The notes beneath the pieces were generated by a model. That model was not told the origin of the DNA. It made no database searches and worked only from the letters and a program-made list of their open reading frames with translations. This document shows positions 12,144 through 24,452 of a stretch of 64,000 nt of DNA, piece by piece. Position 1 is the stretch's first letter; each line of letters starts with the position of its first letter. The DNA comes from a virus: the IMG/VR virus record IMGVR_UViG_3300014039_000004; one strand, 5' to 3'. Both the position numbers and the translations under genes were made by a program.

Positions 12144-13553
12144 TTAATCTGCAACACTAAAATCAAAATTATTTTCACTAAAATTATCTTTTTCTACTAT
12201 TACATGATTTTTATCTATATCTTTATTATCTAACAATTTTTCTTCTGTTGTGCTTTTACAATATATAGTATATAATACTATTTTATTATTTAAATACCTT
12301 ATATTAGATAAACGATACAAATAATTTTTTATATCTCCACATTGAGGAGAAGTTATAATAACAATATCTACATTGCCTCTAAGTTTTTTATCAGGTGCAT
12401 TACCTGTACTAAGTACATTAATAACACCTTTATTAAACAATAATTCATTATTAGTTCGTTGAGCTTGTGCTTTTAATATTTTAGGTTCACCTTTGTGTTC
12501 TCCATTTTTATAAGTTAAAAGTTGACCATTAATATCTACAGCATAAGCAGGTTCAATTTTATCATGATAATTACCACATATTATTTTTCCTTCTTGTTTA
12601 TTAATATAATCTGTAACATTATTTGCAAAATCACTTCTTTTATTTATAATAAGAATATTTTTATTTTTATTTTCTTTAACTATATTATAAATACTTCCAA
12701 GTTTAAGTTTATAATCTGATAAAAGAATTGCTCTATTATGAATAATTTCATAAGTTTTAGAAGCTCTTTCTTTTATATTACTAGGATTATAAAGATTATC
12801 AAGTTGCATATTAAATGAACTAGACATATCAAGATGTTCATTCCATCCATTTTCTTTAGCAAGTTGATTACAAATTTGAATTGCACTTATATTAAGTTTT
12901 GTATTACCTATTCTGGCTTCATCAATTTTATCAAATCCACCAAAAATAGCAATACTAGTAGAAATATAATTATTATAATATTCAAGAAGTTTAGCATCTT
13001 CAGAATTTGGTTCAATAGTTACACCAATTCTAGTTTCTTCTACGGGGGTGCTCAATCGAACTAACTCTAATTCATTAGCTTTAAATTCATCTAAAAGTGG
13101 ACAAAGTTTATAAAGTTCAATATTATCTTCTTTATTTTTAAGAAATTTATTAAGAATAGTAAGTTTAAATTTACTACTTTCATAAAAACATCTTAAATGT
13201 TTAAAAGGACTAGTAATATGATAAGCAATAAATAAAGTAGGAATACTAACAGGATGTTTAATAATAAAATCTTGTGTTACAATACTAATATGTTTACTTT
13301 TAAATAAATCTTTAAATTTATTATTAATATCTTCATCTTCTTGATGAGTTAAAAACTCCATAATACTAATTCTTTCATCAAAACTAAAAGTACATATTAG
13401 AGTTTTACAACTATTAGAATTTTGATATATTCTATTTAATATACCAGATATAAGATATTTATCATTAATAGTATTTGGTATAATAGCACTTCCTACACCT
13501 TTATTTTGTCTCCATCGTTCGATAGCTTTATCAAATAAATTATGTAAGTTCAT
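12144..13553 (-). CDS. hypothetical protein, possibly a degenerate SF2 helicase-like ATPase
   Basis: 469 aa. No clean Walker A seen. Location in the replication module only. Confidence 0.3.
   Translation of the reverse strand: MNLHNLFDKAIERWRQNKGVGSAIIPNTINDKYLISGILNRIYQNSNSCKTLICTFSFDERISIMEFLTHQEDEDINNKFKDLFKSKHISIVTQDFIIKHPVSIPTLFIAYHITSPFKHLRCFYESSKFKLTILNKFLKNKEDNIELYKLCPLLDEFKANELELVRLSTPVEETRIGVTIEPNSEDAKLLEYYNNYISTSIAIFGGFDKIDEARIGNTKLNISAIQICNQLAKENGWNEHLDMSSSFNMQLDNLYNPSNIKERASKTYEIIHNRAILLSDYKLKLGSIYNIVKENKNKNILIINKRSDFANNVTDYINKQEGKIICGNYHDKIEPAYAVDINGQLLTYKNGEHKGEPKILKAQAQRTNNELLFNKGVINVLSTGNAPDKKLRGNVDIVIITSPQCGDIKNYLYRLSNIRYLNNKIVLYTIYCKSTTEEKLLDNKDIDKNHVIVEKDNFSENNFDFSVAD
13035..13051 (+). 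repeat. 17-nt motif, forward variant: TTCTTCTACGGGGGTGC
   Basis: Inside 12144..13553, antisense to the gene. The gene reads STPVEE. Confidence 0.75.
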
Positions 13554-18938: not shown

Positions 18939-18999
18939 TTTACAACAAATTTAAAAATTAATATTAAGTTTATAAATAATAACTCTAAATAGAGTTTTG

Positions 19000-19072
19000 T
19001 CTTCTCTACGAGGCTCGAACTCGTGACCCATACATTAAAAGTGTATTGCTCTACCTACTGAGCTAAGAGAAG
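19000..19072 (-). tRNA. tRNA-Lys (anticodon UUU)
   Basis: Hand-folded 73-nt cloverleaf. Acceptor CTTCTCT/AGAGAAG, D arm GCTC-AGTAGGTA-GAGC, anticodon arm ATACA-CTTTTAA-TGTAT, T arm ACGAG-TTCGAGC-CTCGT. Confidence 0.85.
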
Positions 19073-19168
19073 AATTGATATTACTATTTTCACAAACCGT
19101 AATATCATATACAATAAACCAAATAACAATTAAAGTTTATCAACTATGAAACACATTATTTTAAATAG

Positions 19169-19252
19169 TACCTACAACAGGACTCGAACCTGCACATCTT
19201 ATAAGATAATGGATTTTAAGTCCATTGTGTCTACCAATTCCACCATGTAGGC
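19169..19252 (-). tRNA. tRNA-Leu (anticodon UAA)
   Basis: Hand-folded 84-nt type II tRNA. Acceptor GCCTACA/TGTAGGT, anticodon arm ATGGA-CTTAAAA-TCCAT, long variable arm TATCTTATAAGATGT, T arm GCAGG-TTCGAGT-CCTGT. Confidence 0.85.
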
Positions 19253-21525: not shown

Positions 21526-21909
21526 TTATTTACATTCAATAAAAAGATTATCATCAAATTGTTCATATTCAGTATTAACTAATTCATCTTTACTAATACT
21601 ATCAAATCTAATATAAAAACTATCATATTGTAATATTACTATAAAAGGATATAAATTATTAACACGAACATTATTTTTATTTTTTAATGATTTAAGTAAT
21701 TTATCTTCATCGTTTTCTACTATTTTGATATTAATAACATTAATAGGTAAATAACAAGCATTAAAATTATTAATAAGATTAGCAGCTCGTCCACTAATAA
21801 GATAATCAATATCTTTATTAATGCTATTAAGTACTTTTTTAAGTTTAAAATTAATAAATCTTACAGTAGCACGATTTACAAGTCTTGATTTGTTACTAAT
21901 TTGTTCCAT
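21526..21909 (-). CDS. hypothetical protein
   Basis: ORF 21526..21969 trimmed to MEQISNKSRL (ATG 21909), because the extension overlaps a tRNA-like element. Confidence 0.5.
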   Translation of the reverse strand: MEQISNKSRLVNRATVRFINFKLKKVLNSINKDIDYLISGRAANLINNFNACYLPINVINIKIVENDEDKLLKSLKNKNNVRVNNLYPFIVILQYDSFYIRFDSISKDELVNTEYEQFDDNLFIECK

Positions 21910-21949: not shown

Positions 21950-22016
21950 GGGAGACATACAGGATTCAAACCTGTATCTACAATAGTAGGTTTTGCTCTA
22001 TTAAACTAATGTCCCC
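21950..22016 (-). ncRNA. tRNA-like element or degenerate tRNA with a truncated anticodon arm
   Basis: Minus-strand sequence GGGACAT-TA-GTTT-AATAGAGC-AAAC-C-CTAC-TATT-GTAG-AT-ACAGG-TTTGAAT-CCTGT-ATGTCTC. The acceptor stem, D arm and T arm with a TTTGAAT loop fold well. The anticodon arm is only a 4-bp stem with a 4-nt loop. Confidence 0.3.
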
Positions 22017-22190
22017 ATTCAACTTAATGTTGAATACCTATATTAACAGGATTTACAATATCAACAATAATACTCCAAGCAAGTTCTTGTTGACCTTGAG
22101 TTTCTGCTTTAAAAAAAGCATCTAAGTAATAACCTAATTGTTTCATAGTTTTAATATTAATAATAGTTTTATTATTTAAACTATCAATGT

Positions 22191-22238
22191 GTCCTAGACA
22201 ATTTCTAACCTTGTTACAATAGTTTTATTTACTAGGAC
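22191..22238. repeat. 48-nt structured element, copy A
   Basis: Outer stem GTCCTAG/CTAGGAC, inner stem ACAA/TTGT, loop containing TTCTAAC, invariant 17-mer TACAATAGTTTTATTTA (22215-22231). Lies 8 nt 3' of the stop of 22247..22468. Confidence 0.6.
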
Positions 22239-22246
22239 TAATAGTA

Positions 22247-22468
22247 TTATTTGAATACTATAAACAAACCATATTCATTAGAATATATATCTGTAATATC
22301 AGTATCACAAATTGTTACTATATTTTGAATTTTGACAACAGTTACATCAACATTACTTAAAATATTGATGACAGCTTTTCTTGCTAAAGTATTATTAGCA
22401 AATTTAATGTCAAGTGAGCTATTAACCATGCTACAACTTTCAACTCTTCTAAATCTAATTGTTTTCAT
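22247..22468 (-). CDS. small hypothetical protein, paralog of 22770..22991
   Basis: 73 aa. MKTIRFRRVE...ARKAVINILSNVDVTV aligns with MKQIRFSRVE...ARNTAAKILQQVDVTV. Confidence 0.6.
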   Translation of the reverse strand: MKTIRFRRVESCSMVNSSLDIKFANNTLARKAVINILSNVDVTVVKIQNIVTICDTDITDIYSNEYGLFIVFK

Positions 22469-22711
22469 ACTTGTAAATTTTAATTGTTAAAGAATTGATA
22501 ATCTATAAACCCATCAAGGATAACTTAATTATCATGAATTGTATCACTTATAATATAAGTTACAATCAAGTTTAAGAGTTTCAATTACTATTTCATTTAT
22601 GCACTCTTTAAGTTAATGAAAAGAATAGTTCTTATATACTCTGAACTATTAATATGAGGAATATTATTATTCTCACGAACCATAATATTAAAAACCATAA
22701 AAATTCTAAGT

Positions 22712-22759
22712 CTCCACTCTGAGTTCTAACCTCAGTACAATAGTTTTATTTAAGTGGAG
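22712..22759. repeat. 48-nt structured element, copy B
   Basis: Outer stem CTCCACT/AGTGGAG, inner hairpin CTGAG-TTCTAAC-CTCAG, invariant 17-mer at 22736-22752. Lies 10 nt 3' of the stop of 22770..22991. Confidence 0.6.
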
Positions 22760-22769
22760 TATTAGGATA

Positions 22770-22991
22770 TTATCTAAAAGTTATAAAATATCCTTCTTCA
22801 TTGACTTCAATGTTACAATTAAAGCCAATAGTAATCTGAACTGTAGCATTAATACGATATACAGTAACATCTACTTGCTGTAAAATTTTTGCAGCAGTAT
22901 TTCTAGCTACTGTATCATCATTAAATTTAAAAATAGCTATACCATTCTCAAATCTAAATGCTTCAACTCTTGAAAATCTAATTTGTTTCAT
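22770..22991 (-). CDS. small hypothetical protein, paralog of 22247..22468
   Basis: 73 aa; see 22247..22468. Confidence 0.6.
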   Translation of the reverse strand: MKQIRFSRVEAFRFENGIAIFKFNDDTVARNTAAKILQQVDVTVYRINATVQITIGFNCNIEVNEEGYFITFR

Positions 22992-23382
22992 ACTTTTGTT
23001 ATTTACTTATACTTATTTATTTTAATAGTTCACAGATACAGAGCCATTATTAATCATATTAATAGTTTCTCTCTGTATTTCGTCCAGTCTCATCAGTGTA
23101 AATTTTAACGTCTCCTGGATGACGACTATTATTAGACTAAATAATAGTATCTAACTCTTGAATAGTTTCTCTTATAGTCTGTTTAAGCCATTATTCAAAA
23201 GTATAAGCACTAGTTTATACGCTTATTTATGTAAGGTATCTTCTTACAATACTTTTTTCAACATTATTATTATTATAGTTTCTATATGAAGTACCATATC
23301 CATTATAATAATAAAAAAGCACACTTGTATTAATAAGCAGTTTATACACTTGCTTAGGTGTTTCTGTTTCTTAGATATTATA

Positions 23383-23790
23383 TTAAAAATCTATCTTTAA
23401 AATCTCTCTAATAACATCTGATAATTTTGATTGAAGCAAAATTGTAAGTTCTCCATCTCTCTCTAAGATAAATTTGAACTCTATTCCATTTTTTATCCAA
23501 TGTCCTGAACGATAATATATCTTATACTTGGAAAGTCTATCTTTAGAAAGAGAAGCTGCTAAAGCAAGAAGATTAATATTTTGACCTTTTGCTGCTAAAG
23601 CATTTCCTTTAGTCTTAATATTATCAATTATGCTTCCTGTATGAAAACTAAATTGCATAATTTCACCCTTACTTTTTTTTAAATAAGAGTTTGCAATTTC
23701 TAGAAATTCTTCATAAGAACTAAACTTTTCTCCAAAGAATCCAGTTCCTTCAAAACTATTTTCTATTTTAATATTTACGTAATATTCCAT
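23383..23790 (-). CDS. hypothetical protein
   Basis: 135-aa ORF. Confidence 0.6.
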   Translation of the reverse strand: MEYYVNIKIENSFEGTGFFGEKFSSYEEFLEIANSYLKKSKGEIMQFSFHTGSIIDNIKTKGNALAAKGQNINLLALAASLSKDRLSKYKIYYRSGHWIKNGIEFKFILERDGELTILLQSKLSDVIREILKIDF

Positions 23791-24144
23791 AATGTTCTTA
23801 TTTAATAATGATATTACTATTTATAATAGCTATAATATGTATTATTACTATACTAATTAGTATTATTATTAGTATGATATTTATCAGTTGTAAAAACAAC
23901 TTCAATGAGTTTGAGATTATGAGTAGGAGAATTAGAATTAACAGAAAAGTGAGATTGAGAGATAGTACCACTTACACTTCCTCTTATTTCTATACTCCTA
24001 CCATATCTTTCAGGTTCTTCAACACTTATTAGAATATTTATCTAACAAGGTAAATCACTTCCATTATTCCAAAAGTGATTATTGCTTCTATTACTAAAAG
24101 CAAACAAAATTTCAAATCGTCCATATCTTCATCTATTTTATTGT

Positions 24145-24192
24145 TCCCACTATGAGTTCTACTCTCATTACAATAGTTTTATTTAAGTGGGA
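24145..24192. repeat. 48-nt structured element, copy C
   Basis: Outer stem TCCCACT/AGTGGGA, inner hairpin ATGAG-TTCTACT-CTCAT, invariant 17-mer at 24169-24185. Lies 8 nt 3' of the stop of 24201..24452. Confidence 0.6.
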
Positions 24193-24200
24193 AAATAGTG

Positions 24201-24452
24201 TTATAGTTCAACACTAACACCAATTTCTTCAGGTTTATCAATAACATAACCTAAAGAAACATTTGTTGTATCAGTGATATAAATATCACCATCTTTTACA
24301 ACAAACTTGCCCTCAAGACCTAAATTAATAAGTCTTTCAGACTCGAACTTAGCACGAGCAGCATTACGAAAAATGATACCAAACTGCTTGTTACTCACTA
24401 CTGTACCTTGTACGTGGTATAACGTTGTGTGCTTTCTTTCTCGCATAGTCAT
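24201..24452 (-). CDS. small hypothetical protein (possibly a distant paralog of the 22247/22770 pair)
   Basis: 83-aa ORF with higher G+C. Followed by the same 48-nt element. Confidence 0.6.
   Translation of the reverse strand: MTMRERKHTTLYHVQGTVVSNKQFGIIFRNAARAKFESERLINLGLEGKFVVKDGDIYITDTTNVSLGYVIDKPEEIGVSVEL

Follow-up and report, generated by a model that had tools for sequence, protein, structure and literature searches.

A 64,000-nt stretch of DNA from a crAss-like gut phage (IMG/VR record IMGVR_UViG_3300014039_000004; hereafter the window) carries three short structured elements between small genes. An earlier note, made from the sequence alone, had placed three 48-nt elements of one architecture at 22191-22238 (A), 22712-22759 (B) and 24145-24192 (C), and our analysis confirmed both positions and layout. 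On the plus strand, all three share the order 7-nt outer arm, 5-nt inner arm, 7-nt loop, 5-nt inner arm, 17-mer and 7-nt outer arm. The outer stems were fully paired (7/7), and the inner stems had 5/5 pairs in B and C and 4/5 in A, whose hairpin had been described as the weaker one. The 17-mer TACAATAGTTTTATTTA was, as claimed, identical in the three copies; its three exact occurrences in the window were confined to A, B and C, and seven further matches, each with three mismatches, were at chance level in number. A covariance model built from seven copies scored the three elements at 71-81 bits (E 1e-13 to 1e-16) in a scan of the window, and the next-best match reached 14 bits.

The minus strand, read 5' to 3', gives an outer stem (P1) enclosing a linker and an inner hairpin (P2), followed by a trailer AC. 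Element A (22189..22238; 48 nt plus the trailer; covariance-model score 71 bits) has its P1 5' arm at 22238-22232, linker at 22231-22215, P2 5' arm at 22214-22210, loop at 22209-22203, P2 3' arm at 22202-22198, P1 3' arm at 22197-22191 and trailer at 22190-22189; its P2 contains one G.A mismatch. For element B (22710..22759; 81.5 bits), P1 is formed by 22759-22753 with 22718-22712 and P2 by 22735-22731 with 22723-22719, the linker UAAAUAAAACUAUUGUA occupies 22752-22736, the loop GUUAGAA 22730-22724 and the trailer 22711-22710, and P1 plus P2 is the minimum-free-energy fold. Element C (24143..24192; 76 bits) has P1 at 24192-24186 with 24151-24145, linker at 24185-24169, P2 at 24168-24164 with 24156-24152, loop AGUAGAA at 24163-24157 and trailer at 24144-24143.

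The earlier note had staked its structural claim on the existence of further, covarying homologs. Related copies were found in about 30 distinct contexts on crAss-like phage contigs, and covariation was counted over 22 distinct sequences and 15 base pairs. Double (compensatory) changes occurred at 13 of the 15 pairs, and 98.2% of the cells were paired, against 71.5% for shuffled sequences and 27-43% when the partners were slid. P1 had 7 bp in every copy and all seven pairs covaried. P2 had 5 bp and a 7-nt loop in all copies, with no nucleotide between P2 and the P1 3' arm; the CUGAG of its stem is replaced elsewhere by GUGAG, UCAAG or ACAAG. The 17-mer, previously taken as unpaired, proved mostly so: nucleotides 10-12 of the linker form a 3-bp pseudoknot with nucleotides 3-5 of the hairpin loop, a pairing absent from the earlier account. 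In B, it joins CUA (22743-22741) to UAG (22728-22726), and in C the loop-linker pairing can be extended to 5 bp (CUAUU/AGUAG). The variants seen were CUA/UAG, GCA/UGU, ACA/UGU, GUA/UAC and AUA/UAU; pairing in the pseudoknot was complete (100%) across the 22 sequences, and one position showed four pair types, another two. Covariation thus demonstrates the fold, and there is good support for the view that these are functional nucleic-acid structures, with stems that covary and single-stranded parts that are conserved. The linker was near-invariant (URAAU...A.UGUA), the loops GUUAGAA, GUUGUAA, AUUACAA, AUUAUAA, AGUAGAA, GGUAGAA and AUUAGAA followed the pattern NNU-NN-AA, and roughly 20 unpaired nucleotides were invariant or near-invariant. 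The N-C after the outer stem is part of the element, with C at +2 in 29 of 30 contexts. In 23 of 30 contexts, positions -1 and +1 allow one further pair (U-A 13, A-U 9, U.G 1), so that P1 is often 8 bp long.

In a 16-sequence alignment, the gene strand gave 10 G.U cells and 5 non-pairs, whereas a recount of the same cells on the opposite strand gave 13 non-pairs; the commonest form of the type-2 pseudoknot requires a G.U pair. All copies lie on the gene strand (minus in the window), and their orientation is constant relative to genes and hammerhead ribozymes. Because of the G.U pairs and this constant orientation, we read the element on the gene strand, and the plus-strand reading that had been offered finds no support. 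The loop had also been described as an anticodon-like CUA, or as displaying UAG. Other copies have UGU, UAC or UAU in place of that triplet, and in every case the linker has changed to match; therefore, it is a pairing partner, one strand of the pseudoknot, and not a codon signal.

The elements are intergenic. The earlier note had them begin 8-10 nt past the stop of a small gene, and the distances on the minus strand were indeed 8, 10 and 8 nt. The gene before A encodes 73 aa (22247..22468, minus), as does that before B (22770..22991, minus; no family match); they are distant paralogs, as suggested, with 42% identity. Element C follows an 83-aa ORF (24201..24452, minus) for which no IMG/VR relatives were found. 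On the downstream side, a 40-aa ORF (22024..22146, minus) starts 44 nt past A, a putative 33-aa gene (22597..22698, minus) 13 nt past B, and a putative gene for a hydrophobic 28-aa product (24038..24124, minus) 20 nt past C. Among all copies, the distance from the upstream stop to the element varied from 2 to 33 nt; some copies had only tiny upstream reading frames, and one phage subgroup carried about 200 nt of conserved non-coding sequence there instead. A start codon followed within 13-77 nt in all copies but one, whose sequence ends 75 nt downstream. Upstream and downstream flanking ORFs fell into many unrelated small clusters, and the window's ORFs had no Pfam or PHROG match, so we rejected a tie to one gene family. 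We also rejected a readthrough or frameshift stimulator: a spacing of 7-10 nt occurs in some copies only, sometimes there is no upstream ORF, and readthrough past the gene upstream of B would meet a UAA in the linker.

The slot in front of the downstream gene is shared with a ribozyme. A RAGATH-1 hammerhead (Rfam RF03152) lies at 23030..23125 on the minus strand (63.4 bits; gathering score 56.3). Its predicted cleavage, after GUAUC between 23035 and 23034, leaves a 43-nt leader to the ATG at 22991, so the 73-aa gene 22770..22991 is bracketed by the hammerhead on its 5' side and element B on its 3' side. In contig L136, a 107-aa gene and its leader come after a hammerhead; the ortholog in L044 has the same leader but comes after a type-1 element. 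In a second set of orthologs, encoding 63 aa, the preceding feature is a hammerhead in L300, a type-1 element in L027, L073 and L079, and a type-2 element in L044. The leader ACAAAACAAAGUA was present in 10 non-redundant copies, directly after a hammerhead in six and after an element in four; none of the 10 was preceded by a true tRNA. The order hammerhead-cargo-element, with the hammerhead 260-600 nt upstream on the same strand, was found in the window and in L027, L073, L079, L127, L129, L136, L139, L150, L157 and L233. Hammerhead cores occurred only on the same strand as the elements.

Element and hammerhead can therefore stand in for each other at the 5' edge of the leader that precedes the downstream gene, and the window hammerhead is the functional counterpart of the element. 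These swaps, the variable stop distance and the occasional lack of a real upstream ORF speak against a 3'-UTR element of the upstream gene; of the roles listed earlier, a processing element is the one that the comparative data favour. The element is probably an RNA processing or punctuation signal equivalent to the hammerhead. Since a self-cleaving hammerhead occupies these positions in sister phages, the element most likely directs the cutting of multi-gene phage transcripts, as a signal not described before.

Database searches placed the element outside the described families. No Rfam family covers it, and at E<=10 no tRNA (RF00005), HDV-family, twister, pistol, hatchet or twister-sister match fell on the elements. 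A match to the Prevotella-2 RNA (RF03043) at 22640-22735 on the minus strand was rejected, since its 35.9 bits are under the gathering threshold of 72.1; it overlaps just the inner hairpin and 3' outer-stem arm of B and then runs into downstream sequence. In a metagenome scan, two of the 119 matches listed were real copies and the others were due to chance, and blastn against INPHARED phages gave no match to the element. The closest annotated relative of the window, MH552500 (terminase 83% identical), has neither element nor hammerhead in its syntenic half, and the distribution is patchy overall. One identical 48-mer occurred in at least five different contexts, and contigs otherwise unrelated to the window have the element alone in common with it. 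A look-alike, AGCACTT-TAAATAAAACGATTGTA-CAAAG..., was set aside as stemless; its other strand resembles a gene start. Judged by sequence comparison, the element is a well-supported RNA family not in Rfam.

The dimensions of the element are those of the "top half" of a tRNA, in which a 7-bp stem stacks on a hairpin with a 5-bp stem and a 7-nt loop, and no nucleotide separates the hairpin from the 3' strand. Its 3' trailer, N-C-(A/U), is also that found after the phages' own tRNA genes: C74 was present in 106 of 112 phage tRNA genes, CCA was encoded in only 6, and the window tRNAs end in A-C-A/U. Type-1 elements have U(-1)/A(+1), as do the tRNAs in 77/111 (U-1) and 91/111 (A+1) cases. The copies are located in tRNA-rich regions, and ORFs start at similar distances, mostly 13-45 nt, after tRNAs, hammerheads and elements. 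The hairpin loops did not match the T-loop consensus UUCRANY (GGTTCRANYCC), and ARAGORN in standard mode found no tRNA at the elements; its metazoan-mitochondrial mode returned a forced D-loop 'tRNA-Leu(tag)' that overlaps B only partly. A degenerate tRNA-like gene, missed by ARAGORN, lies at 21951..22015 on the minus strand (37 bits). Its acceptor, D and T arms are intact, its anticodon arm is cut to a 4-bp/4-nt hairpin, and it is followed by C-C and, 41 nt later, by the ATG at 21909; this gene probably serves as a further punctuation mark. The string AAAAC..CUAUUGUA is common to this gene, just 5' of its T arm, and the element linker; homology is no more than suggested, as the 8-mer occurs 16 times in the window (5.5 expected).

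We give a probability of roughly 0.4 to the reading that best fits these data as a whole, a tRNA-like punctuation signal on the gene strand that is cut by tRNA-end-processing RNases. Such a signal would punctuate polycistronic phage transcripts, both marking and creating the 5' end of the downstream cistron's short A-rich leader, a job that RAGATH-1 hammerhead self-cleavage would do at the same positions in sister phages. The acceptor-like 7-bp stem, set directly on the 5-bp/7-nt hairpin, would form a 12-bp helix; the 17-nt linker, locked to the hairpin loop via the 3-bp pseudoknot, may supply an elbow-like cap; and N73-C74-like nucleotides would come after the stem. Host tRNA-end-processing endonucleases would then excise this mini "top half", with RNase P making the cut on the 5' side and an RNase Z-type enzyme the one on the 3' side. 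We infer both the cleavage and the enzymes responsible, and we hold the tRNA-mimic route specifically as tentative, at somewhat less than even odds. Several features tell against it. The hairpin loops depart from the T-loop consensus, the Rfam tRNA model gives no match on the elements, no true tRNA stands before any of the 10 conserved leaders, and the likeness to the adjacent tRNA-like gene depends on a frequent 8-mer. A near-invariant linker and invariant loop bases are unneeded in a substrate recognised by shape, and they fit a catalytic core or a specific protein site better; moreover, positions -1 and +1 covary, so the "discriminator" is often paired.

Reduced tRNA-like signals at mRNA ends have precedents in the mitochondrial tRNA punctuation model and in mascRNA at the MALAT1 3' end. 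RNase III sites lie between the early genes of phage T7, where endonucleolytic cuts separate cistrons; the proposed role of the element would be analogous, although its 12-bp helix is too short for a standard RNase III site. In plant mitochondria, t-elements and acceptor-stem-like hairpins direct the RNase P/Z cuts that make mRNA ends (PMC1920247). Like t-elements, the element is a reduced tRNA-like fold between or beside mRNAs, alongside true tRNAs and with no decoding, and its edges, like theirs, would define mRNA 5' and 3' ends. Unlike t-elements, which keep the T-arm motif GGTTCRANYCC, it lacks that motif; it is also a bacteriophage element of smaller size (50 nt) whose conserved 17-nt linker engages in a pseudoknot, and its cleavage by RNase P/Z is putative. 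If host tRNA-processing enzymes do cut it, we know of no smaller, pseudoknot-capped tRNA mimic that serves as an mRNA processing signal, and of none in phage.

These arrangements suggest a testable role for the hammerhead ribozymes of bacteriophage genomes. That the element, a hammerhead and a degenerate tRNA occupy equivalent slots before gene leaders supports the notion that RNA cleavage punctuates the small-gene operons of crAss-like phages. Should host tRNA-processing enzymes cut the element, it could serve as a compact part with which to separate cistrons in Bacteroidota; self-cleavage would instead make it a new ribozyme class. Either way, an RNA family absent from Rfam is present in the most abundant group of human gut viruses.

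Self-cleavage is the main rival, although we consider it doubtful. A 50-nt pseudoknotted core, consisting of the closing stem, the conserved 17-nt strand and the hairpin loop with its 3-bp pseudoknot, would cut its own backbone just upstream of gene leaders, probably near the 3' edge, replacing the hammerhead. Association with hammerhead and twister neighbourhoods was the criterion that yielded twister-sister, pistol and hatchet, and the element takes the place of a self-cleaving ribozyme upstream of orthologous genes. Its size of about 50 nt, its pseudoknot, the roughly 20 near-invariant unpaired nucleotides and the freely covarying closing stem are typical of a small ribozyme core, and the near-invariant unpaired C after P1 (29/30 contexts) is consistent with one. 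On the other hand, earlier ribozyme-associated motifs have, to our knowledge, mostly failed to cleave when assayed. The exact 7/5/7 dimensions and the tRNA-like trailer are more simply explained otherwise, the core is very A/U-rich and its tertiary helix has only 3 bp. Neither Rfam nor a topology comparison revealed a resemblance in sequence or topology to any known class. The element shares with the RAGATH-1 hammerhead the phages, the strand, the slot immediately 5' of the same leaders and orthologous genes, and a similar leader length; unlike the hammerhead, it lacks the core CUGANGA / GAAA / NUH and the three-way junction, and its self-cleavage is only hypothetical. Membership of the hammerhead class was rejected, as its topology differs and the Rfam match covers only the separate ribozyme at 23030-23125. 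Twister, pistol, hatchet and twister-sister were also rejected: a closing stem with a one-sided 17-nt linker and a hairpin fits none of their structures, nor the permutation of pistol that was worked through. The closest HDV-type comparison is with the theta (minimal HDV-like) ribozymes of gut phages (PMC10879173). Like these, the element is a small pseudoknotted RNA, about 50 nt long, in which a hairpin abuts the 3' arm of a 7-bp P1; both lie in tRNA-rich parts of Bacteroidota gut phages in which most tRNA genes do not encode CCA. Unlike theta ribozymes, it has no conserved downstream P1.1, catalytic C (J4/2) or P2 3' strand, its hairpin stem has 5 bp rather than 3 bp, and it does not stand at tRNA 3' ends; its loop, unlike that of the HDV fold, pairs with the linker. 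An HDV-like or theta fold was rejected, as the complements to the linker read downstream of A, B and C agree in neither register nor spacing and nothing past N-C is conserved.

Conserved unpaired bases in a defined scaffold could also mark a specific binding site for a phage or host protein, which we regard as unlikely. The protein might be a dedicated endoribonuclease, or the site a translational operator of the downstream gene or a nut/put-like antitermination signal, with a hammerhead equivalence that is merely positional. In agreement with this proposal, each genome has several copies, which stand 13-77 nt ahead of start codons in a region whose small genes are probably early ones. However, no co-occurring protein family was found beside the copies, whose flanking genes are unrelated; among the 10 larger window ORFs scanned, none was recognised as an RNA-binding or RNase gene; and a protein site leaves the ribozyme swap and the tRNA-like trailer unexplained.

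It is quite improbable that the element acts as DNA, whether it were a cassette junction, a hot spot of recombination or an N4-like hairpin promoter for a phage RNA polymerase. Homology blocks between phages often begin or end at the element, and the cassettes differ between phages, as would be expected of the cassette array suggested earlier; RNA-type covariation argues for a role in RNA. The 48-mer repeated across contexts, the contigs that share only the element and the patchy distribution, with MH552500 lacking it, also fit this reading; mosaic junctions, however, are a possible by-product of any repeated sequence. Folding as RNA is indicated by the G.U asymmetry and by the five covarying variants of the pseudoknot between loop and linker, and the orientation relative to genes is constant. 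In the sequence as read, the Bacteroidota -33/-7 promoter motif is absent from the element (no TTTG or TAnnTTTG), so a host promoter was rejected. We found no recombinase or promoter linked to the element. PeSLs are the promoter-early stem-loops that border cassettes in T4-type phages. Like them, the element is a repeated structured intergenic signal beside small accessory genes in a plastic region and coincides with mosaic junctions; unlike them, it has no recognisable promoter and keeps a conserved sequence core and pseudoknot. The early promoters of phi14:2, a crAss-like phage, showed no motif in common (bioRxiv 10.1101/2020.03.07.982082).

The compact pseudoknot closed by a variable stem could also suggest a ligand-binding aptamer (riboswitch), for which we see only a slim chance. 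The core would be a circular permutation of the preQ1-I H-type pseudoknot, with the A-rich strand followed by CUA pairing with loop UAG; the linker AUAAAACUA with loop UAG resembles the aptamer tail (AUAAAAAACUA) and loop UAG of Bacillus subtilis preQ1-I. The element has in common with preQ1-I and luteovirus-type H-type pseudoknots a 5-bp stem, a 3-bp loop-tail helix (UAG/CUA in type 1) and an adjoining A-rich strand. Unlike preQ1-I, its strand order is circularly permuted, it has an extra closing stem, and the segment that holds the ligand-pairing C is just AA. Rfam gave no preQ1-I (RF00522) match on the elements, the pseudoknot sequence itself varies, and there is no expression platform, with nothing conserved downstream; preQ1-I controls queuosine-related genes, and the genes downstream of the element are unrelated small ORFs. 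Finally, an armless tRNA-like RNA or amber-suppressor mimic with anticodon CUA on the plus strand is barely credible: the loop UUCUAAC resembles an anticodon loop or T-loop and some related phages have suppressor tRNA-CUA genes, but the plus-strand triplet varies (CUA, ACA, GUA, AUA) and covaries with the linker, mismatches are more numerous on that strand, the hairpin sits against the 5' arm, on the opposite side from that in a tRNA, and the window is translated with the standard code.

Re-examination of the window sequence bore out the coordinates and common architecture of three 48-nt elements on the minus (gene) strand, A (22191-22238), B (22712-22759) and C (24145-24192), each built of a 7-bp outer stem (P1), a 17-nt linker and a 5-bp inner stem (P2) with a 7-nt loop. 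The linker 17-mer had three exact occurrences in the window, all inside the elements, and a covariance model scored the three copies at 71-81 bits, compared with at most 14 bits for the rest of the 64 kb. The source of the window is a crAss-like phage, with a terminase that shares 83% identity with its counterpart in crAssphage ctcc615 (Wotdevirus murinus), PHROG matches to terminase, portal and DNA polymerase, a GC content of 26% and a fit to the standard genetic code. All neighbouring genes lie on the minus strand, together with two tRNA genes (18999-19072 and 19168-19252), a degenerate tRNA-like gene (21951-22015) and a complete RAGATH-1 hammerhead, a self-cleaving ribozyme (23030-23125; Rfam 63.4 bits, gathering score 56.3), located 38 nt 5' of a 73-aa gene (22991..22770, minus strand). 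The hammerhead was absent from the earlier note. The 65-nt tRNA-like gene scored 37 bits with the Rfam tRNA model; its acceptor, D and T arms are good, its anticodon arm is reduced to a 4-bp/4-nt hairpin, and ARAGORN made no call for it. It is unable to decode and may be a processing signal only; an ATG lies 41 nt downstream.

Across pattern scans and model searches, about 30 distinct contexts proved to contain this element, representing 22 distinct element sequences. The copies came from IMG/VR contigs, mostly of 40-190 kb and many out of one metagenome, from two metagenome contigs among the matches listed and from four MAG-binned contigs; the whole analysis is a sequence comparison inside one narrow phage clade. 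On the gene strand, the order is P1 5' arm (7 nt), linker (17 nt; consensus U-R-A-A-U-(AAAA)-N-N-A-Y-U-G-U-A), P2 5' arm (5 nt), loop (7 nt; N-N-U-N-N-A-A), P2 3' arm (5 nt), P1 3' arm (7 nt) and an N-C trailer. Paired cells reached 98.2% in the 22 sequences, against 71.5% after shuffling and 27-43% with partners slid; the copies share ancestry, and the shuffle statistics therefore exaggerate how independent they are. Changes on both sides were seen in 7/7 P1 and 4/5 P2 pairs; the stem covariation proposed from the three window copies held in the additional homologs.

Linker nt 10-12 pair with loop nt 3-5 in all 22 sequences, forming a 3-bp pseudoknot (CUA/UAG, GCA/UGU, ACA/UGU, GUA/UAC or AUA/UAU). 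In type 1 elements, linker nt 10-12 are CUA and the loop is GUUAGAA; type 2 has GCA (also ACA or GUA) with GUUGUAA (AUUACAA when GUA); type 3 has AUA with AUUAUAA. The pseudoknot was invisible to the earlier note, which had only three identical copies in hand. The 17-mer is indeed identical in these copies but not wholly unpaired as described there, and the loop triplet read as anticodon-like is instead the pairing partner of the linker. At the edges, nt -1 and +1 are able to pair in 23/30 contexts, and position +2 is C in 29/30. G.U pairs are common on the gene strand, also in the commonest type 2 pseudoknot, and most become A.C mismatches on the opposite strand; all copies also point the same way with respect to genes and hammerheads. 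We therefore favour an RNA of the gene strand.

The copies sit in regions rich in tRNA genes, beside small, unrelated ORFs for which no family match was found. The upstream stop lies 2-33 nt before the element, with only tiny reading frames upstream of some copies, and a start codon follows 13-77 nt after every copy but one, whose sequence stops 75 nt downstream. Many element-bearing contigs also have RAGATH-1-type hammerheads on the gene strand. A same-strand hammerhead core was located 260-600 nt upstream in about 12 loci, the window among them, and no opposite-strand core was found near element loci.

At the 5' edge of gene leaders, element and ribozyme can replace each other, as judged by two sets of orthologous genes and ten leaders (L numbers denote loci on other contigs). 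A 107-aa gene with a near-identical leader is preceded by a hammerhead in L136 (junction ...GUC/UGUGA followed by AACAAAACAAAGUAAAAAUG) and by a type 1 element in L044. A 63-aa gene follows a hammerhead in L300, a type 1 element in L027, L073 and L079, and a type 2 element in L044. The leader ACAAAACAAAGUA(A/G)..AUG, a conserved, A/C-rich translation leader common to unrelated small genes, directly followed a hammerhead (6) or an element (4) in 10/10 non-redundant occurrences of ACAAAACAAAGUA (L027, L044, L073, L079, L127, L136). Cleavage by the hammerhead falls 5 nt short of its 3' end, so that the downstream product starts with a 22-43-nt leader; cutting the RNA at the element's 3' edge would yield one about as long. 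Among 62 phage tRNAs without another tRNA next in line, an ORF start came next at similar distances in 32, mostly 13-33 nt. Most simply, the task common to element and hammerhead would be RNA cleavage between cistrons, separating them and setting the downstream 5' end.

The cut could be the work of tRNA-processing enzymes. In size and layout (7 bp, 5 bp, 7-nt loop, with no break along the 3' side), the element matches the acceptor/T-arm stack of a tRNA. RNase P and RNase Z recognise tRNAs by this stack, and minihelices of the kind are substrates for them. It also shares an unusual C-containing trailer with the phages' own tRNA genes, which at the element-bearing loci encode C74 in 106/112 and full CCA in 6/112 cases (usual trailers CTA, CAA, CTT and CAT), and type 1 copies share their U(-1) (77/111) and A73 (91/111). 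In theta-ribozyme phages, CCA is encoded in 4.5% of tRNAs (PMC10879173), and the nearest precedent is offered by the t-elements of plant mitochondria (PMC1920247). However, the loop differs from a T-loop, the element escapes detection by tRNA models, the near-invariant linker exceeds the needs of a shape mimic, and the "discriminator" is often paired. For these reasons, a new self-cleaving ribozyme remains a serious rival, although a categorically new ribozyme class is unlikely. Less weight goes to a specific protein-binding site, and a DNA-level primary function, suggested by homology blocks that break at the element and by its patchy distribution, is less likely still.

An Rfam search found no family covering the element, and it lacks the defining features of tRNA, HDV-like, hammerhead, twister, pistol and preQ1-I RNAs. 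On comparative grounds, we rate it as a probable RNA processing signal of an undescribed family; its closest functional counterparts would be t-elements or punctuation marks of the ribozyme type. In eukaryotic RNA viruses, cleavage by a hammerhead within the 5'-UTR can drive the initiation of translation (bioRxiv 10.1101/2024.05.16.594327, preprint); this is one possible, for bacteria speculative, reason for such cuts to matter.

In one phage subgroup, a conserved non-coding region of about 190-200 nt lies directly 5' of type 2 elements (gene-sense coordinates: L124 1767-1956, L127 9336-9531, L129 7571-7760, L135 1186-1375, L139 10090-10277, L154 9593-9783); the window lacks it. It starts with GUGGA-UAAAUAAAAUCAUAAUACAAG-UCCAC, repeating the element's UAAAUAAAA, and has several predicted hairpins and a few compensatory changes (alignment A3). 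A hammerhead core lies immediately 5' of it in L139, and the region is a candidate ncRNA bracketed by ribozyme and element.

Directly 3' of element A, a linker-like stretch without stems (UUUAAAUAAUAAAACUAUUAUUA; 22160-22187, minus strand; 12 bits, model R1) may be left over from a decayed copy. A sub-threshold Prevotella-2 RNA match (22640-22735, minus strand; 35.9 bits against 72.1) begins in the inner hairpin of element B and takes in a downstream GUGA-loop hairpin, UAUUAUGGUUC-GUGA-GAAUAAUAAUA. Four phage-like contigs with the element (L279, L281, L290, L291) were binned into MAGs assigned to Bacilli, Clostridium, Anaeroplasmataceae and Prevotellaceae; at least the L279 contig is probably a mis-binned phage contig, since it matches the IMG/VR contig of L124 in size (111,025 nt) and element-containing sequence. 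A suppressor tRNA with anticodon CUA (tRNA-Pyl in ARAGORN) on the related contigs of L027, L064, L073, L079, L136, L139 and L157 suggests TAG recoding in those phages; in the 64-kb window, recoding added no ORF coverage and no such tRNA was found. The crAss-like contig of L136 also carries an abiF RNA motif (13403-13440, plus strand) at 50.1 bits, above the gathering score of 37.
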